Shown here one piece after another: positions 3-63,467 of a DNA stretch of 64,000 nucleotides. Source of the stretch: Planctomycetota bacterium (GTDB lineage Bacteria; Planctomycetota; UBA8108); the NCBI GenBank assembly GCA_965659285.1, contig CBFHWB010000002.1:3435-67434 (forward strand), given 5' to 3'. The notes beneath the pieces were generated by a model. That model was given only the letters and a program-made list of their open reading frames with translations, had not been told where the DNA came from and made no database searches. The stretch's first letter is position 1. Every line of letters starts with the position of its first letter. The translations under genes were made by a program, and so were the position numbers.

Positions 3-2984
3 TTGCGCAAGAAGGGCAACCTGTCGATGGCGGGTAAGGCATCCGCCAGCAGCGAGGAGAAGAATAAGAACAACCTCACGAAGTACGGCAACGATGGCAA
101 CCTCGGCACCCGCTGGTGCGCCAACGGCGGCAACCCCGGCGAGACCTGGCAGGTCGACCTCGGCGCGGCGAAGCATATTCGCTCTCTCCGAATCCACTGG
201 GAGAAGGGCGGCGCGGCCTATCGCTACCAGGTCGAGGCCTCCGCCGACGGCAAGGAGTGGAAGACCATCGTCGACAAGTCGAAGAACAGGAAGAAGGCCC
301 AGGTTACCCCGCACAAGGTTGATTCTCCCGCGACCCGCCACCTGCGAGTGAAGTTTCTCGGTTCGAGCGGTTCCTATTGGGGGAGCTTCTGGGAGTTCGA
401 GGCCTATGCCAGCGCACAGCTTCCGCCCCTCAAGAAGACGATCAAAAAGGCGGCCCTCGCAGCAGCTTTGGGGCCATCGAGCATCGCCGATGTCAAGGCT
501 CCCGAAGGATTCAACGCGACGCTCTTCGGCACTCCACCGGAGGTTAACTATCCTGTCTGTCTCGCGGCTGCGGCCACCGGCGAGGTCTTTGTCGGGGTCG
601 ATGAGCAGGGTTCGCTTGGTAAGCAGCCCGGCCGGGGCAAGGTCATACGCTGCATCGACACCGATGGAGATGGCGAGGCGGACAAGGTCAACATCTTCGC
701 GAAGATGAACCATCCGCGCGGGCTCTTCTACGACAACGGCTCCCTCTGGGTTCTGCATCCGCCCTTCTTTACTGTCTATCACGACGATGATCTTGATGGT
801 GTCGCTGACCGTCACGAGACGCTCATCACCGGCATCAGCTCCGATGAGACCAAGCGCCGCGGTGCCGACCACACGACCAACGGGATCCGCATGGGTATCG
901 ATGGCTGGCTCTACATCGCCGTTGGCGATTTCGGGTTCACGGAGGCCAAAGGCAAAGATGGAACCATGCTTGCCCGCCGCGGCGGCGGGGTCGTTCGGGT
1001 CCGGCTTGACGGCACCGGCATGGAGATCTTCAGTTGGGGACAGCGGAACATCGTCGATATCTGTGTCGATCCCTACCTGAACCTCTATACCCGGGACAAC
1101 ACCAATGATGGAGGCGGCTGGGATATTCGCCTCAGTCACGTCATGCAGTCGGGTCTGTATGGCTACCCCTCGCTCTACCTGAACTTCACCGAGGAGACCT
1201 TCCCGCCACTAAAGGATTACGGAGGCGGCTCCGGTTGCGGCGCGATGTATTTCCAGGATCTGCGCTGGCCGCAGCCCTATGCCGACGCGCTCTATACCTG
1301 TGACTGGGGCACCAGCACGGTCTACCGCCACAACCTGCCGGCCAACGGCGCGACCTTCAACGCCCACCAGGAGGTTTTTCTCAAGCTTCCCCGGCCGACC
1401 GACATGGATGTCGATGGCAGCGGCCGGCTCTACGTTTCGAGCTGGAAGAACGGCAAGTTCAACTTCAGCGGTCCCAATGTCGGTTTCGTGACCCAGATTA
1501 CCCCGGTGGGCTTTACACCGAAGCCTTTTCCCGAGTTGAACGAGTCCGGGGATGCGGATCTGCTCAGCTACCTCTCTTCTCCCTCGGCGGTTTACCGTCT
1601 CCATGCACAGCTTGAACTGCTCCGCCGCGGAAAAGACAAGGCCCGGATCACCGCGCTTGGAGCTCTCGCCGCCGATGGCAAGGCTCCGCTCTATGGCCGG
1701 ATTGCGGCAATCTATACGGTCAGTCAGCTTCTGGGGCCGGAGGCGCAGGCTCACCTGCTGAAGCTGCTCGATGATGCCTCCATCCGGGAGGCCGCCCTTC
1801 GTGCTCTGACCGATGACAAGGCCGGGCTCGACAAGCTGCCCCTGGAGCCCTTTCTTGCCGCGCTTAAGGATGAGAACCCCCGGGTGAGGGCGCAGGCCCT
1901 GATCAGCCTTGGGCGTCTCGGGCGGCGCGAGGCGGGCAAGGCCATTCTTCCTCTCACGATACGTCCTTCCGGCCAGCCAGGGCCGGAGGCCAGGCCGCTC
2001 TATAAGCAGGCGGATCCCGGCCGGGTCATTCCCCACCTGGCGGTGCGCGCGCTGGAGAGTTGCAACTCGGTACAGGTCTGCCTGGAGGCCATAGAAGGAT
2101 CCCATTCGGCCGGGGCTTTCTGGGCTCTGAAATACATGCACAACGAAGAGGCCGTTTCGGGACTGGCGGCGGGTCTTAGCCGCACCCAGAGCGCCGCCAC
2201 CCGCCGTGAAATCCTCACGACCCTGGTCCGCCTCTACCACCGTGAGGGAGACTACAAGAGCGGCTGGTGGGGTACGCGCCCGGATCGCAGCGGACCCTAT
2301 TACGACAGGAAACCCTGGGCCCAGAGCGAAAAGATAGCCGCCATCCTGAAGACCTTTCTCGCCGGCGCCGATGCGAACACTCTCGAGGGCACAGCCTCAG
2401 AGTTGGCGCGCCATAAGGTCAAGATCGCCGGTTTGCCAACCGCGGCAACCGTCGCCGCGCGGGCGAAGGAGACCCAGGCGCCAATCGTGGTCCCCCAGGC
2501 CGACCCGAACAATCCAAACCTGGTGGCGAACCTCAAGGCCGAGCTGGCCGCCAGCCGCGCGTTGAAGGCGAAGGGATCGGCAAAGCGGGGCGAGGCGCTC
2601 TTCAAGCTCCAGACCTGCGATACCTGCCACACCACGGCTAACGGGCAGCTTCCCAAGGGGCCGCACCTGGTCGACATCGGCAAGCGTTATAAGAAGGCAG
2701 AGCTGATCGAGTCCATCCTCAAGCCGAGCGCCAAGATCGCCCAGGGCTTCGATACCTATGTCTTCGTCATGAAGAACGGCAAGGCGATGACGGGCTTCGT
2801 AACGAGCGAGAGCGCTGAAGAGGTCGAGCTCAGGCAAACCAACGGGATCTCCTCGACGATCACAAAGAGCGAGGTTGGTGTGCGGCGGAAATCACCCGGC
2901 TCGGTCATGCCGATCGGGCTCGTCAACAGCCTCACTCCCGAACAGCTCGCCGACCTCATCGCCTACCTGCAATCGCTGAAGTAA
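3..2984 (+). CDS. large multidomain protein, 5' end truncated at the window edge: F5/8 type C discoidin domain, PVC-type dehydrogenase-like beta-propeller region, HEAT repeats, C-terminal cytochrome c domain
   Basis: N-terminus contains GNLGTRWCANGGNPGETWQVDLG, which is discoidin-like. The middle region (DTDGDGEADKV...HPRGLFYDNGSLWV) matches the planctomycete membrane-bound dehydrogenase-like domain. HEAT-like repeats follow (PRVRAQALISLGRLG). There is a single CxxCH haem-binding motif (CDTCH) near the C-terminus. The ORF runs to the window edge. Confidence 0.6.
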   Translation: MRKKGNLSMAGKASASSEEKNKNNLTKYGNDGNLGTRWCANGGNPGETWQVDLGAAKHIRSLRIHWEKGGAAYRYQVEASADGKEWKTIVDKSKNRKKAQVTPHKVDSPATRHLRVKFLGSSGSYWGSFWEFEAYASAQLPPLKKTIKKAALAAALGPSSIADVKAPEGFNATLFGTPPEVNYPVCLAAAATGEVFVGVDEQGSLGKQPGRGKVIRCIDTDGDGEADKVNIFAKMNHPRGLFYDNGSLWVLHPPFFTVYHDDDLDGVADRHETLITGISSDETKRRGADHTTNGIRMGIDGWLYIAVGDFGFTEAKGKDGTMLARRGGGVVRVRLDGTGMEIFSWGQRNIVDICVDPYLNLYTRDNTNDGGGWDIRLSHVMQSGLYGYPSLYLNFTEETFPPLKDYGGGSGCGAMYFQDLRWPQPYADALYTCDWGTSTVYRHNLPANGATFNAHQEVFLKLPRPTDMDVDGSGRLYVSSWKNGKFNFSGPNVGFVTQITPVGFTPKPFPELNESGDADLLSYLSSPSAVYRLHAQLELLRRGKDKARITALGALAADGKAPLYGRIAAIYTVSQLLGPEAQAHLLKLLDDASIREAALRALTDDKAGLDKLPLEPFLAALKDENPRVRAQALISLGRLGRREAGKAILPLTIRPSGQPGPEARPLYKQADPGRVIPHLAVRALESCNSVQVCLEAIEGSHSAGAFWALKYMHNEEAVSGLAAGLSRTQSAATRREILTTLVRLYHREGDYKSGWWGTRPDRSGPYYDRKPWAQSEKIAAILKTFLAGADANTLEGTASELARHKVKIAGLPTAATVAARAKETQAPIVVPQADPNNPNLVANLKAELAASRALKAKGSAKRGEALFKLQTCDTCHTTANGQLPKGPHLVDIGKRYKKAELIESILKPSAKIAQGFDTYVFVMKNGKAMTGFVTSESAEEVELRQTNGISSTITKSEVGVRRKSPGSVMPIGLVNSLTPEQLADLIAYLQSLK

Positions 2985-2991
2985 GAGGTTC

Positions 2992-4368
<1,377 letters not shown>

Positions 4369-8805: not shown

Positions 8806-9018
8806 TCGTTTTCCCGGGGTGTTCCAGTAGAGTCGCGCGACCCAGGCGCGGTAAACGATCATACGGAACTGTCCGAGTATCGCAAGAGCCCCCCTGCTGA
8901 GGGGCTTACAGGCCGCGTGATTTTTTCCATCCGGGCTCTAAGACTGGTAAGATACTGGCTGCAATTCGACTGGCTTTGAGTCCAGATAAAGAAACGGCTT
9001 TTTTGAAAGGAGCCACCC

Positions 9019-9570
9019 ATGAAGTTCAGTGCGCTGTTCCTGGCAGCTCTCCTGGCGACGCCCGCGTTCGCGGACGAGTCCGGGAAGGTCGAGTCAGGCT
9101 GTAAGGCGGGAGAGGGGACTGCGAAGTTCAGCGTTCTTCCCGTCACCGGGAAGTTCGTCAAACGGAAAAACGGTCTCTGCTATATATGAGTGGGCGGCAG
9201 AAAAGCCTCCGTCGCGATTTTCTCTCGCGAGGTAGGTAAAGACCTGGCCGGTCTGGTCAGGGGAATCGATAAGGTTGCCGCTAATTCCAAGGGTTCGATC
9301 GCTTATCTCATCTCTCTGGATGATGACAAGTCGGGCGCTCGCAAAAAGCTCGCGGCTTTCGCTGCCGCCAATAAGATCAAGGCTGTTGATATGACCATCA
9401 ACCGTGGAGGCAAGAACGCTCCCAAGGGTTGGAAGATCAACGACAAGGCCAAGCACACCGTCGTCATCTACAAGAACAAGACGGTGGTCAAGACCTTTGG
9501 TCTGAACAAGATCGACAAGAAGACTGTCGCGGAAGTTGCCGCGGCCGCGGCCAAGGTACTCGGTAGCTGA
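9019..9570 (+). CDS. candidate secreted selenoprotein with CxxU motif (in-frame UGA at 9187-9189). Alternative reading: a 56-aa secreted Cys-containing peptide (9019-9189) followed by a separate hypothetical protein (9190-9570)
   Basis: ATG at 9019 is preceded by AAAGGAG. It encodes a signal peptide MKFSALFLAALLATPAFA followed by ...KNGLCYI, then TGA. The downstream 126-codon ORF is in the same frame and begins on the codon immediately after the TGA, with no RBS of its own. Read-through gives C-Y-I-U-V-G-G. A GC-rich hairpin (TCGCGA stem) lies about 20 nt downstream of the TGA. Confidence 0.35.
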
Positions 9571-9691
9571 GACCTTTCGGCCTGTTTACGGGAGACCGTT
9601 TTCTCTGAATGAACGGTCTCCCGTGATTTTTTTACGCCGCCCGGCCACCGGGTTCCGGGCGAGTTTCCGATACGCGACCGCCAACGTCACC

Positions 9692-11485
9692 ATGAAAACA
9701 GCTGCTCCTCTCTTCCTGTTGTTTTTCTGCGTCAGCGCCGTGAAGGCTCAACAGCAGCCGCCCGGCCCTCCCGGCGTAGCGACCAATGTCGAGCTCACCT
9801 TTCGCGTCAACATGAATACGCAGATCGGGCTCGGCCGTTTCAATCCCGACGTTGACTTTCCCGTCGTTCGCGGAACGATCAACGGCTGGGGTTGCAGCGA
9901 TGCCATGCTCGAGTCTGAAGACGAGGAGGGCGTCTACGAACTGCGGGTGCAGGTTTTCAATCACGTGATCGGAGCCGGCGAGTACAAGTTCAACATCAAC
10001 TGCGGAGAGGGCGGTCTCGGCCGCTGGGAGGACGCGATCTCCAACAGGCGCTATACCGTCACCGGGACAGAGCCTGACGAGAACGGCGATGGCTTTGGTG
10101 AGCTGGTCCTCGACACCGTTTTTTTTGATGATGCGGTGGGTGGAGCCGATGCCGAGCTGTTCTTCCAGGTCAACATGAATGTGCAGATGGACTCGGGACG
10201 TTTCAATCCGGTCAGTGACCAGGTCTTCGTCCGCGGATCGTTGAACGGCTGGGGGTGCAGCGAGGCGCTCAGGGATGATGATGAAGATGGAGTCTACGAG
10301 CTCTATGTGCAGGTGCCCGGCCACCAGGCGGGTACCGGGCAATTCAAGTTCAACATCAACTGCGAAGATGGCGGCTGGGAAGACAGCATCTCCAATCGCC
10401 GCTACAACTTTACGGGTAACGAGCCGGATACCAATGGCGATGGTTTCCTGGAGGTCGAGGTTCCGGTTGTCTTCTTTGACAATGTTCGTTCAGGGCCCGA
10501 TGTTGAATTCCATTTCCGGGTCGATATGACAGCCGCTATCGAACAGAACGTTTTCATCCCCGAGAAGATGACAGTTCATGTCGGGGGGGTGTTTAACAGG
10601 TGGAGCTGCAGCGTGGAGTTCGAGGAGTTCGATGAGAACGTTTTCGAATTGGAGATGAGGGTGCCTTCCCACCCGGTGGGCGTGGGTGAATACAAGTTCA
10701 ATATTTCCTGTGACGAGTTGAGCTGGGAGCCTGAGATCGTCAACCGGGCCTACGTCGTTTCAAGCGATCTTCCAGATGAGGATGGCGATGGCTTCCTGGA
10801 GCTGGCGCCGCCCCTGGTGTTCTACAACGCGTTGGAGAACCCCTTTCTTGACGCCGAGCTGGTGTTCCAGGTGGACATGAGCGTCATGGAGCGAGAGGGG
10901 CTCTTCGATCCGGCCACCGATAACGTGGTTGTGCGGGGAGAGTTCAATGGCTGGGGATGCACCGAGGCGATGTCGGCGATCGGGGCCGGGCTCTACGAGG
11001 CCAGTGTAGAGGCGCTCGGGCTGAGCATGGGCCGGGGTCAGTACAAGTTCAACATAGGCTGCCAGGACGTCGGGTGGGAGGACTCCATCTCGAACCGTCA
11101 GTTCTTTGTTCTCGGTGATGAGGTCGATTCCGATGGTGATGGTCTCGTCGAGGTTCGCGTTGGCCCGGTCTACTTCGACAACAGGGAGCCGCCGCCGGGG
11201 CTTGGTCCCTTTGTACGCGGCGACTGCGGCCAGGCCGGCAATATGGACATCTCCAGCGGGATCTTCCTGCTTGGCTTTCTCTTTAGCGGGGGGAGCGATC
11301 CAGGTTGCATGGCGGCCTGCGATGCGGATGGCGACGGTCGTCTCGATATCACGACAGCGGTTTTCATTTTCAACTTTCTTTTCCTCGGCGGCGTTCCGCC
11401 TTCGGCTCCCTTTCCCGGCTGCGGCCTGTCGGAATCAGCGGGCGATCTCGAGCTTGGCTGCGCCGAGAGCACGGGCTGCGGTTAA
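9692..11485 (+). CDS. secreted repeat protein: signal peptide, four about 115-aa beta-sandwich CBM20-like repeats, C-terminal dockerin-like module
   Basis: Start at MKTAAPLFLLFFCVSAVKA (signal peptide). There are four divergent repeats, each of the form F.V.M...FNP..D.V.VRG..NGWGC..A....YKFNI.C....WED.ISNR.(Y/F), with two conserved Cys and YKF / WE..NR signatures reminiscent of starch-binding CBM20. The C-terminus has duplicated D.D.DG..D...calcium-binding segments (DADGDGRLDITTAVFIFNFLFLGG) ending PPSAPFPGCG. Confidence 0.6.
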   Translation: MKTAAPLFLLFFCVSAVKAQQQPPGPPGVATNVELTFRVNMNTQIGLGRFNPDVDFPVVRGTINGWGCSDAMLESEDEEGVYELRVQVFNHVIGAGEYKFNINCGEGGLGRWEDAISNRRYTVTGTEPDENGDGFGELVLDTVFFDDAVGGADAELFFQVNMNVQMDSGRFNPVSDQVFVRGSLNGWGCSEALRDDDEDGVYELYVQVPGHQAGTGQFKFNINCEDGGWEDSISNRRYNFTGNEPDTNGDGFLEVEVPVVFFDNVRSGPDVEFHFRVDMTAAIEQNVFIPEKMTVHVGGVFNRWSCSVEFEEFDENVFELEMRVPSHPVGVGEYKFNISCDELSWEPEIVNRAYVVSSDLPDEDGDGFLELAPPLVFYNALENPFLDAELVFQVDMSVMEREGLFDPATDNVVVRGEFNGWGCTEAMSAIGAGLYEASVEALGLSMGRGQYKFNIGCQDVGWEDSISNRQFFVLGDEVDSDGDGLVEVRVGPVYFDNREPPPGLGPFVRGDCGQAGNMDISSGIFLLGFLFSGGSDPGCMAACDADGDGRLDITTAVFIFNFLFLGGVPPSAPFPGCGLSESAGDLELGCAESTGCG

Positions 11486-28728: not shown

Positions 28729-29988
28729 TCAGCGCGGCTCCGCCCCGACACCGGGGAATGGAGCCGGGGGTTGGGGGCCTCCCCTGTAGAGGAAGTTCAG
28801 GAGGTAGACGGGGTCCGCGAGGTCCAGGGCTCCATCGGCGTTGATGTCGGAGGCCTCGTTGATTCGGGGACGTTCGCCATCGAGGAAAAGATAGGCGATC
28901 ACGAAGACTGCGTCGCTCAGGTTAACGGTCTCATCTCCATTGGCATCGCTTCGCAGGAAGTGAAGCTCAGGGGTAAAACGAGTGACTCCCGAGGCATCGA
29001 CGTAGTTTCCGTAGCTTGCCAGGAGGGAGCCGCCCTGTTGCCCGGCTCCGGGCTCAAAGCTTTCGCTGCCGGCGTTCGCGGCAAGGTAGATCATGCCTCC
29101 TCCCGGTTCCGTTCCGATGGACAGGCGGGCGAAGGCGTTTCTGGAAAAAGCCATGCCGGGATCGATGGTGTCGATAGATCCCACGCCGCTCCGGAAGCCG
29201 AGGCTCGTTGCGTAGAGCTTGTCGTCAAGCCAGGCGAGGTCGTAATAACCGCCCATTCCCGCACAGAGGAGCTCGCCATCGGTGAGCTGGAGGGGGGCTC
29301 TTTCGCCTACCGCCGCGGCGAGCTGCGCGGGACTGAAACGCACGAGCTTTTCCGCTGCCATCCCTGTCTCGCTGTCGGTCAGGCCGGAGGTCACCAGGTA
29401 GAGGTTGCCGGCCGGGTCGAAGGTGATGGGGCCTGAGAATGGAGAGATGTCGGCGACAACCTCTTCGTTGGGAGTCTCCGGGTCATCGTCCAGGAGCCAC
29501 ACGGAGTTGCCTGGAGAAGCTCCCAGGCCGGAGATGAAACCTCTTCCGGCTATCTCCCGGCGGGCGGCCCGCGGGGCGAAGACCATGTCAAAGTTGAAGC
29601 CGATCCTGTCGACAAGCTGCGCGCCGCTTCCGTCAAGAGGCACCCTGTAGATGTTCTGTTCCGAACTTTCTCCGAACCAGGCGTTGAGACCCCCAGGCTC
29701 CATGACCAGGAAGGATCCAAAAACAGCCGGCTGAAAGGAAGCTAGAACTCTGCTTCCGTCTTTACAGTGAATCCGGATCTCGCCGCCTTCACTGACGATG
29801 GGCTCCCCTTCGGGCGAGAACGCAAGCCCTCCGAGCTGGAGTGCGAAGGGGGCGCCCGCATCGTAGCTGAAGAGCTGCTCCGCTTCGAATCCCTCGGCGA
29901 GTTCATAGGTTACCTGCGCATGGAGAAGGTCTGTATGGATCAGGGTGAGGACCATGCCCGTCAGCACGACCATCAGAAAGTCTCTCAT
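28729..29988 (-). CDS. secreted protein with C-terminal dockerin-like module
   Basis: Start at MRDFLMVVLTGMVLTLIHTDLLHA (signal peptide). The tool ORF extends 93 codons upstream without support. The C-terminus has duplicated D.N.DG..D..D calcium-binding segments ending PQPPAPFPGVG, paralleling the tail of the 9692-11485 protein. Confidence 0.5.
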   Translation of the reverse strand: MRDFLMVVLTGMVLTLIHTDLLHAQVTYELAEGFEAEQLFSYDAGAPFALQLGGLAFSPEGEPIVSEGGEIRIHCKDGSRVLASFQPAVFGSFLVMEPGGLNAWFGESSEQNIYRVPLDGSGAQLVDRIGFNFDMVFAPRAARREIAGRGFISGLGASPGNSVWLLDDDPETPNEEVVADISPFSGPITFDPAGNLYLVTSGLTDSETGMAAEKLVRFSPAQLAAAVGERAPLQLTDGELLCAGMGGYYDLAWLDDKLYATSLGFRSGVGSIDTIDPGMAFSRNAFARLSIGTEPGGGMIYLAANAGSESFEPGAGQQGGSLLASYGNYVDASGVTRFTPELHFLRSDANGDETVNLSDAVFVIAYLFLDGERPRINEASDINADGALDLADPVYLLNFLYRGGPQPPAPFPGVGAEPR

Positions 29989-30612
29989 AAGAATTCTTTC
30001 AGCTTGTGGGTTCCCGGTTTCAGCCGGCGGGCCGGCTTGATGCGGGAGTCTTTTGTCGGTTTTCCCCTGCTGTTCTTCATCCCCGAAGACAGGGTCTTTT
30101 TCCGGGCAGGTCTCCTGGCTTACGGATCGAGCCGCCCTCCCGAACCTTCCCGACCCAGCCGTGAGGGTCAGTGGTGAGCTCCTTTCAGAGAAAGGATGTA
30201 CGGCTCCTGGAGCCGTGGGGGTGGGTGGTATCCGCTTACAGTGGCGGGGGCCGCGCCGGTTTTTCACCGGCTTCCCTCTTTCCGCCGTCGCTCTCCAGCG
30301 AGAACGGCGACACCTGGAAAGCGCCTATGGTATTCCTTGTCCGGGGCGGATGAAAGCGATATCGGGGTTTCCGATCGATTCGCCAGCCCCCCTGGTTTCT
30401 CTCCGCCGGGTCCGCCTGGACGCGCGGCGCAAGCCTTTGGAATCAAATGATTTATCCGCTGATGGGTAGAGCTCGCCAGTGGTCGAAAGAGCTTGCCGAG
30501 ATACGGCTCGATCTGGTACAAAAGCTGTCCGCCTGAATTCCGGTTTCGACGCGCAGCGACTCCCGGAGCGTATCGAAATTCGCTTTTTTAACGGTCAAAC
30601 AGGGCAGGTACC

Positions 30613-54754: not shown

Positions 54755-56095
54755 TCAGATGAACATCTCGGTGACCGGCTCGTCGGAATCGGCCATCTTG
54801 ATGGCGCGTCCAATGGCCAGCTTGTTCTCCTTGACCGGGTTGATCCGGAGCATGGAGAGCAGGGTCGAGTAGAGCTCGCCGACAAGGACGGGGCGGTTCC
54901 GTACCTCCTGCCCATCGGTGCTCGAGGAACCGATGACGGTCCCTCCCTTGACTCCGCCGCCGGCGACCATGGCGCTGAAGCAGCGCGGGAAGTGATCGCG
55001 TCCATTGTTGCGATTGATCTTCGGGGTTCTTCCGAACTCACCCATGCAGACGATCAGCGTCGAGTCGAGCAGACCCTTGGAGCGAAGCTCCTTCATGAGC
55101 CCGCTGAGGGCGGGGTCGAGGATCGCGGCTCGCGCGCTCACGGCGTTGAAGTTGTTGGTATGGGTGTCCCAGCCGCCGAGGTTCATCTGGACAAAGGGGA
55201 CGCCTTTTTGTACGAGCCGCGCCGCCATCAGCGACTGGAGGCCGAAATTGTTCAGGCCAAAGCCCTTGCGAACGGCCTCGGGCTCGTTACGGACATCGAA
55301 TACCTTGGCGCTGGGGGAGTCCAGGAGACTGAGAGCTTTCTTGCGCACGGTTCGGTGCCCGGCGAGGAACTCGCCGCGTTTCGAAGAGAGATACTTATTG
55401 TCGAGCATGCCAAGCAACCCGAGCCGGGAATTGAAGCGGCCCTTGTCCACGTCGCCGGGATACTGCAGATAGGGCACCGGGCGGGAGGGGTTGTCGACCT
55501 GGAAGGGTCCATAGCGCACTCCGAGGTAGCCCGGTCCGTAGGATCCTCCGCCGATCGAGACAAAGTGAGGGAGATCCGAGTTTTCCTTGCCCAATTCCTT
55601 GGCGACCAGGGCGCCGAAGGACGGGTGGGTGATCGCGCCGGTCATCCTGTAGCCGGTGTGCATCAGGTAGCTGCCGCGGGAGTGGTCTCCCTCGGGAGAG
55701 GTCAGGCTGCGGACAAGGCAGACATCCTTCGATTCCTTGGCGACCCCGGGGTAGTGCTGGGCGATCTGGAAGTCGCTGGCGGTATCGATCCCCTTGGTCT
55801 CTCCGCCGTTTTGATGGTCGGGCTTCGGATCCCAGGTGTCGAGCTGGCTGGGGCCGCCGCCGAGCCAGACCAGGATGCAGCTCTTGGCCTTGCCCTTTTG
55901 CCAGGGCTGTACGCCTCCGACAACCGTTTTGCCGCGGCTGTTGTCCTGGACCTGGAGCGGGGCGGCCGGGCTTCCAGAGGCCCAGCCAAGCACCATCGAG
56001 CAACCGAGTCCGCCGACTCCAACTCTGAGGAAGTCACGGCGGTCCTGGGAAGGGCTGCTGTGCTGCGTGGTCGATTTCGCATCAAGTGGTTTCAT
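54755..56095 (-). CDS. DUF1501 domain protein (sulfatase-like fold) with twin-arginine signal
   Basis: Tat motif RRDFLRVG. DUF1501 length and conserved blocks. Forms the canonical pair with the adjacent DUF1549/DUF1553 gene. Confidence 0.85.
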   Translation of the reverse strand: MKPLDAKSTTQHSSPSQDRRDFLRVGVGGLGCSMVLGWASGSPAAPLQVQDNSRGKTVVGGVQPWQKGKAKSCILVWLGGGPSQLDTWDPKPDHQNGGETKGIDTASDFQIAQHYPGVAKESKDVCLVRSLTSPEGDHSRGSYLMHTGYRMTGAITHPSFGALVAKELGKENSDLPHFVSIGGGSYGPGYLGVRYGPFQVDNPSRPVPYLQYPGDVDKGRFNSRLGLLGMLDNKYLSSKRGEFLAGHRTVRKKALSLLDSPSAKVFDVRNEPEAVRKGFGLNNFGLQSLMAARLVQKGVPFVQMNLGGWDTHTNNFNAVSARAAILDPALSGLMKELRSKGLLDSTLIVCMGEFGRTPKINRNNGRDHFPRCFSAMVAGGGVKGGTVIGSSSTDGQEVRNRPVLVGELYSTLLSMLRINPVKENKLAIGRAIKMADSDEPVTEMFI

Positions 56096-56148
56096 TTTCT
56101 TTCCTTTCGTGCCGCGCGGGATTCGCGAGACGTACGAGTTTCTTTCGT

Positions 56149-57909
56149 TTAGCTTGAATGCAGGAACTCCGCGGAGTTCAGCAGCGCCCAGTGAATATCA
56201 GCAAGCGCCGATTGCCGCTGGGCATCGTCCCGTGCTGATTGCGCGTGGCGGGTGAAGGCGCTTCGCTCGGCGGCCGAAGGCAGACGGCCCAGGCTCGCCA
56301 GGAAGAGCTGATCGACATGCCTGTTCGGCGCGATACCGTGCAGGACCACATCCAGGTTTCCAGGATACTTCTTCTGATAGCTGGCGTGATAGGGTCTCGA
56401 TGCCGGCGCCTTGCTCGATGTGAACTCACCGTTAAAGAGCAGCAGCACCTGCAGCACAGTCCCCTGGAACTCCATCCGCTTTTCTGTCTCGTCGACTCCG
56501 AAGCGCCTGACGAATTCGCGTTCAGCCTTCTGGACGTAGCTCTTCACCTGGCGGGCGTTGTTTTCCGGGTGGGGGTCTTCCATGCCGGTAGCTCTGAGGA
56601 CCGACCGCACCAGCACCTCGGGCTCGAGGGGGCGGATGGGGATGGTGGTGAAGAGGTCGTGTTCTTCTCCCGGCACGATTCCCCCGGGAACTCCCTGGAC
56701 AGCCTGCTGGCGGTAGGCTCTCGTCAGGACGATGATCTTCTGCAGCCGCCTGAGGTCGTAGCCGCTGGCCACGAAGTCCCGGGTCAGGTACTCGAGCACC
56801 CCGGGCAGGATGATCTTGGAGTCTTCCGAGAAGTCGTCGATCGGGTTGACGAAGCCCTTGCCGAGGAAGCGTGCCCAGACCCGGTTGACCAGGCTGCGCG
56901 CAAAGTACTTGTTCTTGTCCGAGGTCAGCCATTTGACCAGGTTCTTGCGCCGGTTGGAGGCCCCGTAGTCGGTAACCTTCGAGCCCTTGCGGGCCATCAT
57001 CATCTTCGATTCCATCTTCTTCCGGTCGAGCTTGCTGGCCCCGGTCTTCGGCTTGGGGAGGGGATCGAGAGGGCTGTAGTTTTCCGGCCTGTTGTAGCGT
57101 ACGCCGAAGTACATCGGCTGGATCTCCATGGCACGATGTCCTTTTTTCATCGGCGGCATGGTCAGCTCTCCACTGGCCCGGGAGCGGATCCCGTATCTGC
57201 GGGAATCGCCGCCGGCTCGGTCGTAGTCGCGGTAGCGCTGGGTGCGGGCAAAGAAGGCGGCAAAGCCGAAGAACTCCTCGCGTTTGACGTCAGCATAGGG
57301 GTGGTCATGGCATTGGGCGCATTCGATTCGAGTGCCGAGGAAGATTCGGGAGACCTTGCCGGCCATGTCTTCTGGCTTGGCTTCGTAGCGCAGGTAGAAG
57401 TTAACCGCAGGGTCGTTGCTGGGCAGGCCCGCGCTCAGGAGGATTTCACGTGAGAGCTCGTTGTAGGGTTTATTGGCCAGGAAGCTTTTCCGCAGCCAGG
57501 TGCGGAAGCTGCCGCGGTCGAGCCCGTCGGTATTTCCCTTTCTTCCGATCAGGGTGTGTTCCCAGACCTCTGCCTCGAACTCGGCATGATCGGGAGTCTG
57601 GAGAAACCAGCTTGACCATTTGCTGGCCTTGTTTCGCGAGCGGTCGTTGAGAAACTGGTCAATCTCATCCGGGTAGGGAATGACGCCCCGCAGATCGATC
57701 GACAAGCGCCTGAAAAAAGCTCTTTCCGAAGCCATCGGCGCCGCGTTGGTGAAGGCCTCGCTCCAGATCTCGCGGAGCAGCAGGTTGACGTCCGCCGCGG
57801 CTTTTTCAGGTTCAGGCAACTTGGGAGCGGCCTGGGTAGCAGTGCTCAGCAGGACACTGGAAAAAACGACCAGAATTCCGACAAGTCTGTTCTGTGAGGA
57901 GCTCATCAT
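56149..57909 (-). CDS. DUF1549/DUF1553 (PSD1-type) domain protein
   Basis: Signature block TRIECAQCHDHPY (DUF1549), with a DUF1553-type C-terminal half. Signal peptide after MMSSSQ. Confidence 0.85.
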   Translation of the reverse strand: MMSSSQNRLVGILVVFSSVLLSTATQAAPKLPEPEKAAADVNLLLREIWSEAFTNAAPMASERAFFRRLSIDLRGVIPYPDEIDQFLNDRSRNKASKWSSWFLQTPDHAEFEAEVWEHTLIGRKGNTDGLDRGSFRTWLRKSFLANKPYNELSREILLSAGLPSNDPAVNFYLRYEAKPEDMAGKVSRIFLGTRIECAQCHDHPYADVKREEFFGFAAFFARTQRYRDYDRAGGDSRRYGIRSRASGELTMPPMKKGHRAMEIQPMYFGVRYNRPENYSPLDPLPKPKTGASKLDRKKMESKMMMARKGSKVTDYGASNRRKNLVKWLTSDKNKYFARSLVNRVWARFLGKGFVNPIDDFSEDSKIILPGVLEYLTRDFVASGYDLRRLQKIIVLTRAYRQQAVQGVPGGIVPGEEHDLFTTIPIRPLEPEVLVRSVLRATGMEDPHPENNARQVKSYVQKAEREFVRRFGVDETEKRMEFQGTVLQVLLLFNGEFTSSKAPASRPYHASYQKKYPGNLDVVLHGIAPNRHVDQLFLASLGRLPSAAERSAFTRHAQSARDDAQRQSALADIHWALLNSAEFLHSS

Positions 57910-58075
57910 GCCTCTTTCAGTAGATCTAAGTGTATTCAAGCTTTGCACTACCCTCTAAGTTACCTATTATAGTTTGTTGGATTCGCTAACATCCAAATCT
58001 TTTCAGGGCTTCCATTTAGCCCAGTGGCCCATCTGTCTGCATTTCCGCCTGAAAAGCGGTTTTACCGGTGGTGAC

Positions 58076-59995: not shown

Positions 59996-61363
59996 TCAAG
60001 CTCCTGTCTCCTTCTCCGCGGGGATCTCGCTTCCATGCGGGTCGAGGTCCGGATTACCCAGCAGCTCCTCCAGTTCTTTGACAAGGCCGGGCTGTAGATG
60101 GTGCTCGATATGATCCGCCGCGTCGTGCACGTGGTCTGAGGCAGCTCCCATTTCGTGGATCATGTAGCTTTCCCAGAGGCGGTGGCCCCGGATGATTGCA
60201 GCGATCCGTTCGCGGCCCGTGGCGGTCAGGCTGAACGCTCCGCTTTCGACCTTTACCTCCCCTCGCGCCCTGCACCGCCTCAGCGCGCCACCGAGTTTTT
60301 CAGGCGGGTAGCCGAGGGGGGCGGCCACCTCCTCCATCCTGAAGCGCTGGTTGAAGATGCCCCCGGCGAGCCGGTAGATCGAGCCGAGCAGGTTTTCTTC
60401 CAGGATCCTCGATTCGAGGGTCCGCTTTCTCCAGGCCTGGGCCAGGAGTCCTTGTCCGGGGCTGAAGACCAGGGCGAGCAGGAATTGCAGGCCGGCAAAG
60501 ACGGCGACGGTTGGAGCCCGGGCGGTTTCGAAACTGACAGCCTCGAGGAGCACCGTCATCCAGGAGCCGAAGAAGGCGGCGCTGAGACCGAAGAGGGCGG
60601 AGAGCAGCAGAACTCTGTCGAAGCGCGAGCTGATGAGCTGGGCGGTGGCGGCGGGGATGATCAGCAGGGCGATCACCAGGATCGCGCCGACAGCCTCAAA
60701 GGCGACCACGATGGCCAGCGCCAGGAGGCTGGTCAGGAGCAGGTTCACCAGGCCTACGGGCAGCCCCAGCGTTCCGGCGAACTGGCTGTCAAAGGAGGTG
60801 ATGAGGATCTCCTTGTAGAAGCAGAGAAAAAAGATCACCACCAGGATGGAACACGCGAGGGTCGGTACGACCTGGTTGAGTTCGCCAATGACCTCCAGGG
60901 AACCGTAGAAAACGCAGTCCTGGTCAAAATGAGCGTCCCGAGCCGCCAGCCTGATGAGGATGACCCCGACCGCGAAGAAGGCGGGGAAGACCGCGCCAAG
61001 AGCCGTGTCAGGCTTGATGCGCGAGTACTTGTGCAGAGCCTCGATGAGCATCGTCGAGGCCAGCCCCGCCGCGAGCGCCCCTCCGAGGACAAAGAGCATC
61101 GTAGCCGAGGCGCCAAAGACGTGATCATCCTGTTCGAGGACGAGTCCGGCGAGCAGCAGGCCGCCGGCAATTCCCGGCAGGACGGAGTGGGAGACAGCGT
61201 CGCCGAGGAGCGCCGTGCGGCGCACCAGGAAGACGGAGCCGAGCAGGCCACAACTCATCGCCACGAGCAGGGCCATCAGCAGGGGCCAGGTGTCGATTTC
61301 CCAGTCGAACCAGAGCTCTGTGGCGGCCAGGCCAGGCCAGAATCTGAGTGGCAGGCAGCTCAT
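59996..61363 (-). CDS. metal (Mn/Zn/Fe) ABC transporter permease (ABC-3 family) with C-terminal DtxR-like repressor module (YtgC-YtgR-like fusion)
   Basis: N-terminal roughly 290 aa is an ABC-3 permease. The C-terminal roughly 150 aa aligns to DtxR over the HTH region (LLGSIYRLAGG...LGGALRRCRARGEVKV) and the metal-binding/dimerisation region (RGHRLWESYMIHEMGAASDHVHDAADHIEHHLQPGLVKELEELLGNPDLDPHGSEIP). Confidence 0.8.
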   Translation of the reverse strand: MSCLPLRFWPGLAATELWFDWEIDTWPLLMALLVAMSCGLLGSVFLVRRTALLGDAVSHSVLPGIAGGLLLAGLVLEQDDHVFGASATMLFVLGGALAAGLASTMLIEALHKYSRIKPDTALGAVFPAFFAVGVILIRLAARDAHFDQDCVFYGSLEVIGELNQVVPTLACSILVVIFFLCFYKEILITSFDSQFAGTLGLPVGLVNLLLTSLLALAIVVAFEAVGAILVIALLIIPAATAQLISSRFDRVLLLSALFGLSAAFFGSWMTVLLEAVSFETARAPTVAVFAGLQFLLALVFSPGQGLLAQAWRKRTLESRILEENLLGSIYRLAGGIFNQRFRMEEVAAPLGYPPEKLGGALRRCRARGEVKVESGAFSLTATGRERIAAIIRGHRLWESYMIHEMGAASDHVHDAADHIEHHLQPGLVKELEELLGNPDLDPHGSEIPAEKETGA

Positions 61364-62700
61364 GGCGTTCCTCCCTCGCTGAGGCCGGGAGGAATCTTTT
61401 TGCCATGCGGATCGGTCTCGGGATTGTCGAGGAGCGCCTCCAGCTCCCGCAATGTTTCAGAGTCGAGAAAGTGTTCTATCTCCTCGGCTCCAGCGTGCAC
61501 ATGGTCCGGGGCCAGCGAGGCCTCCCGCTGCAGGAAGATCTCCCACAGCCGGTGTCCACGCATCAGCGCGCGCGCGCGCTCCTGTCCCGCCGAGTTGAGG
61601 ACCAGGAGATCCTTCTCGAAACGCCCCCAGTTGGAGCCGTTCATGCGCCGGGCGAGGATCCTGGTGGCCGAGGGCTCTTCGCCTCGCTCCCTGGCAAGCT
61701 CACCGATCGGTATCGCGGCCAGCTCGCCGCCGCGTTCGCCGATCCGCCAGGCCGAGGTCAGCAGGTTTTCCCGCAGCGTCTTCAACTCGAGTCTCTTTTG
61801 CAGAAGATAGCGGCCGAGGACTCCATGATGGGGCGAGGCCAGGAATGCTGTCATGAGCCAGAGAAAGGCAAGGCAGACGATCGCCGGGCCTACTCCAATC
61901 CCGAATACGAAATCCAGGTAGACCCCTCCGAATCCCGACAGCGCCCCAAGGAAGGCTGAGAGCGCGATCATGCGTCCCAGGCGATCGGTCAGGAGATAGG
62001 CTGTCGCGGGGGGGATCACCAGCAGGGCGGCGACGAGGATGACCCCGAGAATTTTCAGGCTGACGACGATCACGAGCGTCAAGAGCAGCAGGAGCAGGCC
62101 ATCAAAGAGCCGCGGAGAGAGACCGATGGAGACCGTGAAAGACGGATCGAAGATCGACGCGGTAAGTTCCTTGAAAAACAGGCACAGCAGGGCGAGGACG
62201 ACCACGGCGGCTGAGACGAGGAAGACCAGGTCGACGGTCTGGATGATCGCAGGATTGCCGAAGAGATAGTGGTTCAGCCCCGAGGACTGGCTGCTCAGCT
62301 CAGGGCCGGCCCGGGTGATCCAGCTCAGCAGCCAGATGCCGATGGCGTAGAACAGGCTGAGGGTGATGCCGAGGCTTGCATCGTCCTTGATCGGCGAATA
62401 AGAGGTGATGGCCCGGGTCAGAGCGGCGGCGAGCAAGCCGGCCGCCAGGGAGCCCAGCAGGAGAGCCGGCGTGCTTTTACTGCCAGCCAGGATGAAGCCA
62501 ACAGCGACTCCCGGCAGCACCGCGTGGCCCAGCATGTCCGCGAAGAGCGCCATGCGCCGCAGTATGATGAAGCTGCCCAGTGCCCCGCAGGTCAGTCCCG
62601 CGAGGCAGGCGCCGAGGATGGCGCTGATGGTCGCCTGGGCGGCGTCGCCCCGGCCGAGCAGGCTCGAGAAAAATTCCCCGGTGAGTTCCGCGAAGCTCAT
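61360..62700 (-). CDS. second metal ABC transporter permease (ABC-3 family), also with C-terminal DtxR-like module
   Basis: ABC-3 permease core. C-terminal ...RGHRLWEIFLQREASLAPDHVHAGAEEIEHFLDSETLRELEALLDNPETDPHGKKIP is homologous to the DtxR metal-binding domain and is preceded by an HTH-like segment. ATGA overlaps on both sides. Confidence 0.8.
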   Translation of the reverse strand: MSFAELTGEFFSSLLGRGDAAQATISAILGACLAGLTCGALGSFIILRRMALFADMLGHAVLPGVAVGFILAGSKSTPALLLGSLAAGLLAAALTRAITSYSPIKDDASLGITLSLFYAIGIWLLSWITRAGPELSSQSSGLNHYLFGNPAIIQTVDLVFLVSAAVVVLALLCLFFKELTASIFDPSFTVSIGLSPRLFDGLLLLLLTLVIVVSLKILGVILVAALLVIPPATAYLLTDRLGRMIALSAFLGALSGFGGVYLDFVFGIGVGPAIVCLAFLWLMTAFLASPHHGVLGRYLLQKRLELKTLRENLLTSAWRIGERGGELAAIPIGELARERGEEPSATRILARRMNGSNWGRFEKDLLVLNSAGQERARALMRGHRLWEIFLQREASLAPDHVHAGAEEIEHFLDSETLRELEALLDNPETDPHGKKIPPGLSEGGTP

Positions 62701-63467
62701 TTCTTGCCGCTCTTTGACTGGCGGATGGCTTCGCCCGCCTGCGAGAGGACGGTGAGGTGTCCCCCGTAGGTCTTGCGCAGCAGCTCCTCGGTAAAGACCT
62801 CTTCGGTCGGACCGAAGGCGACCATGCGCCGGTTCAGCAGCAACAGGTGGTCGAAATATTCAGAGGCTGTCTGCAGATCGTGATGAACGACCAGGAGCGT
62901 TCCGCTCTCCGAGCGCATCTGCTCAAGCAGCTTGACGATGGTCTTTTCCGTGGTGGCATCGACCCCGGCGAAGGGTTCGTCCATGAGGTAGACCCGGCTC
63001 TCCTGGGCCAGCGCCCTGGCGAGGAAGATCCTCTGCTGTTGTCCTCCTGAGAGGTTGGCAATCTGACGGTCGGCGAAGGCCGTCATGCCGACCTGCTCCA
63101 GGGCCTCGTCGGCGATCTTCCGGTCCTCCGCCCCGGGCCGGCGAAGAAGGCCGAGATGGCCGTATCTTCCCATCAGCACCAGGTCGCGGACCGTGATCGG
63201 GAAGTCCCAGTCGATCTCCTCCCGCTGGGGAATGTAGCCGACCGTTTCGCGCTGCTGTTCAATCGGGTCGCCGTAGATCTTGACCCATCCTGAGGAGAGA
63301 TCGAGGAGCCCCATGCAGGCCTTGAGCAGGGTTGATTTCCCCGCGCCGTTGGGGCCGATGATTCCAACGAGGGCTCCTTCGGGAATCTCCACATCGATGT
63401 TCCAGAGGACGGGCTTCTGGTCGTAGGAGACCGTCAGGTCATGGATCTCAATCGGCGGCGCGGTCAT
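62697..63467 (-). CDS. metal ABC transporter ATP-binding protein
   Basis: Walker A (GPNGAGKST), ABC signature (LSGGQQQR), Walker B (VYLMDEP) and H-loop. Confidence 0.9.
   Translation of the reverse strand: MTAPPIEIHDLTVSYDQKPVLWNIDVEIPEGALVGIIGPNGAGKSTLLKACMGLLDLSSGWVKIYGDPIEQQRETVGYIPQREEIDWDFPITVRDLVLMGRYGHLGLLRRPGAEDRKIADEALEQVGMTAFADRQIANLSGGQQQRIFLARALAQESRVYLMDEPFAGVDATTEKTIVKLLEQMRSESGTLLVVHHDLQTASEYFDHLLLLNRRMVAFGPTEEVFTEELLRKTYGGHLTVLSQAGEAIRQSKSGKK

Follow-up and report, generated by a model that had tools for sequence, protein, structure and literature searches.

A probable Cys-x-x-Sec selenoprotein of predicted thioredoxin fold, encoded across an in-frame UGA in Planctomycetota

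The selenoproteins of prokaryotes have been catalogued in 119 families, each tied to a profile (PMC13188914, Table 1). Among the entries defined through CDD only, the TlpA-like (cd02966) and peroxiredoxin-like (Prx-like, cd02970) selenoproteins carry UxxC, UGC or UxxS motifs (U, selenocysteine or Sec) at the canonical site (PMC13188914). In other Planctomycetes, complete selA/B/C/D sets have been reported together with thioredoxin-fold (Trx-fold) selenoprotein candidates that had been annotated in split form (PMC4807772). Here we analyzed a stretch of 64,000 nucleotides (nt) from a Planctomycetota bacterium (assembly GCA_965659285.1, contig CBFHWB010000002.1, positions 3,435 to 67,434 of the forward strand), which is called the window below. 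Two adjacent open reading frames (ORFs) at positions 9019-9570 (+) of the window are separated by a single in-frame TGA. We conclude, at a probability of roughly 85 %, that they form one genuine selenoprotein gene in which the in-frame UGA encodes Sec.

The gene has 183 codons plus a terminal TGA, with Sec as codon 57. Its first part is a 56-codon ORF that starts at the ATG at 9019. The Shine-Dalgarno sequence AAAGGAG (9006-9012, +), read directly from the letters, lies upstream of this ATG with a 6-nt spacer, and in the alignment it is also kept in L001 and L003 (handles with L denote loci, those with P protein representatives). The ORF encodes MKFSALFLAALLATPAFA (9019-9072, +), which by its pattern is a predicted signal peptide of the general secretion type with an A-F-A cleavage site before DESGK. 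Cys28 and Cys54 follow, and the ORF ends at the TGA at 9187-9189. An equivalent hydrophobic N-terminus was found in all full-length family members. The second ORF (9190-9570) continues in the same frame and opens with a GTG immediately after the TGA. Its 126 residues (9190-9567, +) would provide most of a thioredoxin fold. The strong ribosome-binding site before the gene is matched by an intrinsic terminator behind it (9586-9635, +), with a 16-bp stem at 9586-9626 and a run of seven U at 9629-9635 (-30.9 kcal/mol, z = -6.0, none of 200 shuffles as good). No plus-strand terminator was detected between the two half-ORFs. Thus, with one ribosome-binding site in front and one strong terminator behind, the gene reads as one transcription unit. 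An earlier note on this DNA had described the two in-frame ORFs, the strong ribosome-binding site, the signal peptide, the two cysteines and the TGA, and all of these statements were borne out. The same note had decoded the UGA as Sec within a CxxU motif, and the homologues described next bear this out as well.

When the downstream 126 residues were compared exhaustively with 1.84 billion representatives by phmmer, 107 relatives were returned; a word-indexed search with the fused protein found near-identical truncated entries only. The full-length relatives (about 180-210 residues, each with a signal peptide) carry C-Y-x-C or C-L-Y-C at the position where the window reads C-Y-I-TGA. Examples are P0012 (ICYVCQNGAKPVTIIFTRE; motif ICYVCQNG), P0015, P0025, P0040 and P0056. 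For a classification, the phmmer matches shorter than 400 residues were aligned to the family hidden Markov model. CxxC was present at the motif column in 22 representatives, 46 started just after the U column and 25 further downstream, two had Trp at the U column, and the other 13 were mostly Cys-less (D/ExxA and similar). The motif Cys54-Tyr-Ile-Sec57 (9178-9189, +) is therefore aligned with a cysteine pair in 22 full-length representatives. The DNA of truncated representatives was inspected. In seven of seven cases (P0001 group, P0003, P0004, P0005, P0018, P0034 and P0074) a signal-peptide ORF abuts via an in-frame TGA, with junctions that include VCYI*V, QCLV*V and LCYV*V. The truncated database calls (46 clusters, with DNA seen for these seven representatives) are thus probably Sec forms. 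By this count the Sec state seems commoner in the clade than the Cys state (46 probable Sec-form clusters versus 22 Cys).

Eleven further loci, taken from independent assemblies, show the same arrangement of ORF, TGA and ORF, with the TGA in the same column of the alignment. All 12 loci keep the TGA, and they represent at least seven independent lineages at 28-93 % protein identity: the window group (window, L001, L003, L008, L012), L013, L004, L005, L006/L007, L010 and L014/L015. The TGA was also unchanged in all close relatives compared, namely the metagenomic L001, L002 and L003, L008 (Tara Oceans metagenome-assembled genome (MAG) ERR598971_bin.43, 93 %) and L012 (92 %). Four of the TGA loci were added by collection scans: L010, a groundwater Planctomycetota MAG with the junction LCYV*N, L013 (50 % identity, VCYI*A), and L014 and L015 (both LCYV*R). 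In L009 (Planctomycetes bacterium UBA1662) the C-terminal 60 residues are 98 % identical. Genome and metagenome scans with a narrower alignment yielded four loci each, and the RNA tests described below rest on few sequences. Together, the translation, the collinear Sec-form genes in the 11 other loci and the full-length Cys-form homologues argue for a complete selenoprotein coding sequence at 9019-9570 (+).

Searches of Pfam and NCBIfam with the fused protein and nine homologues gave no match at E <= 1, and the family profile found nothing significant among PDB sequences. The fold was read from a modelled Cys-form homologue, P0012, standing in for the window protein. The AlphaFold2 model of P0012, the closest full-length Cys form (35-38 % identical), was built with a 95-sequence alignment and reached a predicted local distance difference test score (pLDDT) of 92.5 and a predicted template modelling score (pTM) of 0.85. 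Against the PDB, Foldseek gave 400 matches to this model at E <= 1e-3, all of thioredoxin fold, with 2ls5 as the best match (E = 1e-8). The order of elements in the model is β-β, short helix, β-α-β-α-β-β-β-α, which equals ResA and TlpA element for element. On this model, the protein is predicted to be a thioredoxin fold of the TlpA/DsbE/Prx type. The N-terminal β-hairpin of the fold is present and is encoded upstream of the TGA; the part behind the TGA would supply β3-α1-β4-α2-β5-β6-β7-α3, and the lysine-rich segment TVVIYKNKTVVKTF is the β6-β7 hairpin. Of the fold proposed in the earlier note, the thioredoxin part agrees with the P0012 model and the Foldseek result, whereas the suggested likeness to SelW/Rdx did not hold, given the lack of a PF10262 match and the TlpA/DsbE/Prx-type fold.

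The position of the motif within this fold is unusual. Where the canonical CxxC would stand, behind β3 as α1 begins, the sequence is F-(S/T/A)-R-E-x-x-K and contains no Cys (FSREVGK in the window, FTREINK in P0012). The CxxC/U motif is found in the β2-β3 connection, where it occupies the N-terminus of a short helix (P0012 residues 53-58) and precedes β3 by 7-10 residues. From the topology, we infer that this is the end of strand β3 opposite to the classical site.

The TlpA/ResA/DsbE(CcmG)-type proteins, which include the selenoproteins 'thiol-disulfide isomerase-like protein' (UxxC) and 'UGC-containing TlpA family' (both cd02966), are alike in fold. In contrast to them, the protein described here matches no Pfam, NCBIfam or PDB profile (PF00578, PF08534, PF13905 and others), has a Cys-less site after β3, carries CxxU before β3 rather than UxxC or UGC, and shows no Pro at the position of the cis-Pro loop (K-H-T). 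The Bcp/PrxQ and Tpx peroxiredoxins, with the selenoproteins Prx (TxxU) and Prx-like (UxxC), differ in that their peroxidatic PxxxTxxC/U motif is absent here and PF00578 and PF08534 are unmatched. SelW/Rdx (PF10262) resembles the protein in having C-x-x-U with Sec as the C-terminal residue of the motif, at a helix start in a thioredoxin-like fold. However, SelW/Rdx is a small cytosolic β-α-β-β-β-α protein with the motif after β1 and no signal peptide, whereas the mature protein here would be an exported domain of 165 residues of the TlpA/Prx type; the PF10262 profile gave no match to the window protein. The Planctomycetes P1 and P2 from Porphyra (Kim et al. 2016, PMC4807772, Table S9) belong to the same phylum and share the annotation as two adjacent ORFs. 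In that study, too, the candidates are matched by Cys homologues from other Planctomycetes; several have a Trx fold, and for some bSECISearch detects no selenocysteine insertion sequence (SECIS). One 'hypothetical' entry there (IMG 2643311185 and 2643311186) could conceivably be an earlier mention of this family.

None of the listed NF, TIGR and PF profiles of the catalogue matches the protein, and the CDD-only families (cd02966, cd02970) are set apart by their described motifs (PMC13188914). GOS_A, the one catalogue entry without a profile, was considered and proved unrelated by sequence comparison. No CY[IV]U peptide was found in the GOS sets searched. One family of Table 1, whose profile does not match the window protein, may represent convergence on a Cys-Tyr-x-Sec site (PMC13188914). 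GenBank holds the gene only as the 126-residue MEC9030281.1 or the 59-residue MEE3052273.1, both labelled 'hypothetical protein'. We are therefore apparently dealing with a new family within a known kind, the thioredoxin-fold Cys/Sec selenoproteins, which is absent from the catalogues checked. Its unusual features are the displaced motif, the predominance of Sec and the SECIS-like loop without G that is described below. New selenoprotein families are reported regularly.

A pathway consistent with these data can be proposed. Translation would begin at the ATG at 9019, and the UGA at 9187 would be recoded to Sec by SelB·GTP·Sec-tRNA(Sec) docked on an mRNA hairpin at 9205-9237. The ribosome would then proceed to the TGA at 9568. 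Cleavage of the signal peptide would release a secreted or periplasmic product of about 165 residues with a TlpA/DsbE/peroxiredoxin-type thioredoxin fold. Cys54 and Sec57, placed at the N-terminus of the short helix before β3, could form a reversible selenenyl-sulfide, and the protein may work outside the cytoplasm either as a thiol/selenol-disulfide oxidoreductase or by reducing an oxidised substrate. A less probable but serious alternative is that the protein is a true selenoprotein in which Cys-x-x-Sec serves as a metal or metalloid site (Cu, Hg, Zn, or Se/S trafficking) instead of a catalytic redox couple. One CxxU offers two ligands only, and other conserved His, Cys or Met residues were not seen in the alignment. 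A CxxC that starts a helix has classic redox geometry, and the Cys-form gene of L020 is located between an AhpC/TSA gene and a thioredoxin-domain gene, which likewise argues for a redox couple.

The L020 locus deserves a separate description. Within its positions 157-3030 the Cys-form member stands between an AhpC-TSA/Redoxin gene and a gene for a thioredoxin-domain protein of more than 798 residues, and this is the only redox-themed neighbourhood observed. The domain without CxxC was also seen in other settings. Tandem copies occur in P0032 and P0050 (two each) and in the 1071-residue P0042 (six matched stretches), and the same domain lies inside giant proteins of 3254 and 3678 residues or is fused to leucine-rich repeats; the proteins with such tandem, giant or fused contexts are P0032, P0050, P0042, P0053, P0099 and P0076.

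The RNA behind the UGA was examined for a SECIS element. A bacterial SECIS (bSECIS) is described by an apical loop of 3-9 nt, an upper stem of 4-16 bp, a minimum free energy (MFE) of <= -7.5 kcal/mol and 16-37 nt between UGA and loop, and the consensus model in addition requires a G within positions 1-2 of the apical loop (PMC13188914). In the window, a hairpin is located at 9205-9237 (+), with a lower stem at 9205-9210/9231-9237 and an upper stem at 9212-9217/9225-9230 that encloses the apical loop UUUUCUC at 9218-9224. The upper part, UCGCGA/UUUUCUC/UCGCGA (9212-9230), places the start of the apical loop 28 nt after the UGA. The hairpin has -14.9 kcal/mol, with z = -2.85 against dinucleotide shuffles (two of 200 shuffles as good). 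With its 7-nt loop, its upper stem of 6 bp plus six further pairs, its energy and its spacing of 28 nt it lies within the bSECIS limits, and like the consensus bSECIS (PMC13188914, Fig. 2A) it is a stem-loop within the coding region. As the earlier note had stated, the hairpin is real, stands at a SECIS-compatible distance and has no consensus G.

A hairpin with its apical loop about 28-32 nt past the UGA was found in every Sec-form gene. The peptide from U to the next β-strand has the same length in all members, and the RNAs align gap-free. As a score we used the best single hairpin with a loop 16-37 nt from the UGA, and 40 synonymous recodings of each gene served as null. The Sec-form hairpins ranged from -11.1 to -23.9 kcal/mol, and z against the synonymous recodings was negative in all of them (-0.2 to -2.1); a Stouffer combination with one sequence per lineage gave z of about -3.5 (40 recodings per null). 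For the three Cys-form genes (L016, L018, L020) the energies lay between -7.3 and -12.3 kcal/mol and the z-scores between -0.65 and +0.38. Sec and Cys forms could not be told apart by the MFE of the whole 60-nt segment behind the U/C codon when this was set against synonymous recodings. Five sequences (L004, L006, L010, L014, L015) share one register. Here 96 % of the cells pair and five of 10 pairs change on both sides, which none of 500 shuffles reached, and registers that were slid paired in 22-48 % only. Some of the compensations involve synonymous sites, such as Leu CUG to CUC with CAG to GAG, and Arg CGU to CGC with AUC to GUC. The sums of the paired positions were about 70 in the window group, 73 in the five sequences named above, 76 in L013 and 66-69 in L005. 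A single consensus SECIS alignment was rejected because the register differs between lineages. A second candidate, the hairpin GGCGGCA-GAAG-UGCCGCC with a G-first loop 10 nt past the UGA, was also rejected as SECIS, being too near the UGA and confined to the window subgroup; it is a perfect 7-bp hairpin at L003 390-407 and degenerate in the window (9193-9210).

Several points weigh against the selenoprotein reading. Against synonymous recodings, the window hairpin reaches z = -1.0 only. The comparison of Sec-form with Cys-form hairpins sets 11 genes against three, which is a small Cys-form control. The covariation test comprises only five sequences, and the structure was derived from those same sequences. 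The register of the hairpin varies by lineage. The all-pyrimidine loop of the window has no G in positions 1-2 and so deviates from the bSECIS rule; the loops of other lineages (CUUCGCAC, UUUG, CUUCACGC) likewise have no G there. Rfam returned no match to SECIS or any other family for positions 9120-9320, at the gathering threshold and at E <= 10. None of selA, selB, selD and tRNA-Sec lies within the 64-kb window, to which the search was confined, and the Sec trait of the organism is presumed. With regard to function, the CxxU motif stands off the canonical thioredoxin active site, so that the oxidoreductase chemistry is proposed rather than observed. Finally, a large Cys-less sister clade (DxxA and similar), which dominates a family profile search, shows that the fold can serve a non-redox role.

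Part of this evidence is what a selenium-free readthrough of the UGA would call upon, in which a near-cognate or suppressor tRNA inserts Trp, Cys or Arg, or a variant code is used: no Sec machinery was seen in the window, the hairpin lacks the canonical G, and P0022 and P0041 have Trp at the U column (LCYVW and GHYW, the latter, in P0041, also without the first Cys). We give this explanation very little credit. TGA acts as an ordinary stop at the end of the selenoprotein gene itself and of the neighbouring permease and GlnA-like genes, which speaks against code reassignment. For the two Trp entries, the most likely origin is a TGA codon that a gene caller translated under genetic code 4 or 25. 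Moreover, the recoded column is exactly the second Cys of CxxC, which is the signature of Sec/Cys exchange, and the comparison of 11 with three genes suggests that a structured element at this distance from the UGA is confined to the TGA forms.

Slightly less credit still is due to two separate genes, a secreted micro-protein of 56 residues and an independent cytoplasmic protein of 126 residues translated from the adjacent GTG by coupling or re-initiation. Gene callers and GenBank annotate the locus in this split form, and the GTG right after the TGA in the window, L004, L005 and L006 could permit termination-reinitiation. However, this codon is GCT, AAT or CGC in eight of the 12 loci. Among the close relatives GTG is found only in the window, and the others have GCT. 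For L001 and L003 the gene caller chose a GTG 15 codons downstream as start; the window has GTA at this codon, and the GTG is absent in L008 and L012, where the first in-frame ATG, GTG or TTG follows 68 codons past the TGA. In the window, too, the next in-frame start-type codon after the GTG at 9190 is an ATG 68 codons further on. The bases upstream of this GTG are GGTCTCTGCTATATA, with nothing resembling a Shine-Dalgarno sequence, and in the loci compared none was seen in front of the candidate starts behind the TGA either. This agrees with the earlier description of the downstream ORF as one without a Shine-Dalgarno sequence or near ATG of its own, and the lack of conservation of the start codons behind the TGA contradicts separate ORFs with an independent downstream start, which the earlier note had named as evidence against a selenoprotein. 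The Cys-form homologues are single polypeptides over both halves, the N-terminal β-hairpin that the fold requires is encoded upstream of the TGA, and the downstream half alone would have no signal peptide, in contrast to every full-length homologue.

Substitutions among five close relatives point in the same direction. The counts of differences at codon positions 1/2/3 are 18/22/76 for the part before the TGA, 8/8/37 for the first 15 codons behind it and 90/56/224 for the remaining downstream part. Since the third-position bias right after the TGA matches that of both flanking segments, this stretch evolves as coding sequence. A pseudogene that arose by recent nonsense mutation of a Cys codon (TGC or TGT) needs only the one base change from TGC to TGA, and Cys-form homologues exist, but it is by far the least probable explanation, as at least seven lineages, diverged to 28-50 % identity, share the fixed TGA, both halves are open and under purifying selection with third-position bias on either side, the exact 126-residue sequence is present on 16 contigs from many samples, and the clade has more probable Sec forms (46 clusters) than Cys forms (22).

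For the selenoprotein reading, a more far-reaching version can be put forward tentatively, with the odds rather against it. In this version, a second redox site, or a site for handling chalcogens or metals, would have evolved independently on the thioredoxin scaffold, with Cys-x-x-Sec placed in the β2-β3 connection, on the opposite face from the lost classical site, and with Sec as the predominant state. The G-less pyrimidine loop might then reflect a distinct SelB-SECIS recognition in Planctomycetota.

The genomic surroundings differ between members. In the window, the neighbours are an amino-acid permease upstream and a CBM48-repeat protein downstream; elsewhere they are aroA and uxaC (L004), valS (L010), or the AhpC/TSA and thioredoxin-domain genes (L020). 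No operon is conserved, since the neighbours change from locus to locus. The next gene downstream in the window (9692-11485, +) encodes a secreted protein with five tandem CBM48/AMPK-glycogen-binding-like repeats of about 115 residues ('GWGC ... NRRY') and ends in a duplicated dockerin-like module ('D.DGDG..DI...F..NFLFLGG'). The whole window was also scanned for ORF pairs joined by a single TGA. Among the 167 pairs, which were nearly all GC-rich shadow ORFs, no further candidate with CxxU or UxxC turned up, and the scan was uninformative on Sec use.

Other features of the window were recorded. A cobalamin riboswitch (Rfam RF00174, 109 bits, full length) at 30088-30332 (-) stands upstream of an ORF without a Pfam match (about 28729-30080, -); as the listed start of this ORF at 30267 overlaps the aptamer, its real start is further downstream. 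At 59996-63467 (-), two adjacent ABC-3 (Mn/Zn/Fe-type) permease genes each carry a C-terminal DtxR-type Fe_dep_repr_C domain, a module for metal binding and dimerisation. An ABC ATPase gene adjoins the pair, and such a tandem fusion of permease and regulator domain is unusual. A DUF1501 gene is paired with a PSCyt2/PSD1 (DUF1549/DUF1553) gene at 54755-57948 (-), a pairing that is a hallmark of Planctomycetes. Identical copies of window proteins were found in marine Planctomycetota MAGs from NCBI, Tara Oceans and Logan. F5/8 type C, DUF7133, HEAT repeat and cytochrome c domains occur together in the large protein encoded at 3-2984 (+).

At present, public databases systematically split or truncate the gene at 9019-9570 together with dozens of relatives, which appear there as 'hypothetical proteins' of 126 and 59 residues. 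Recognising the Sec codon restores a complete exported protein of predicted thioredoxin fold, and a family profile for annotation pipelines then becomes possible. The consensus-breaking loop offers a test case for SECIS predictors that miss atypical elements, and the Cys/Sec pair off the classical site lends itself to studying how new reactive sites arise on thioredoxin scaffolds. The apparently uncatalogued family is centred on Planctomycetota and abundant in marine metagenomes, and it would extend the selenium use of this phylum to an extracytoplasmic protein.

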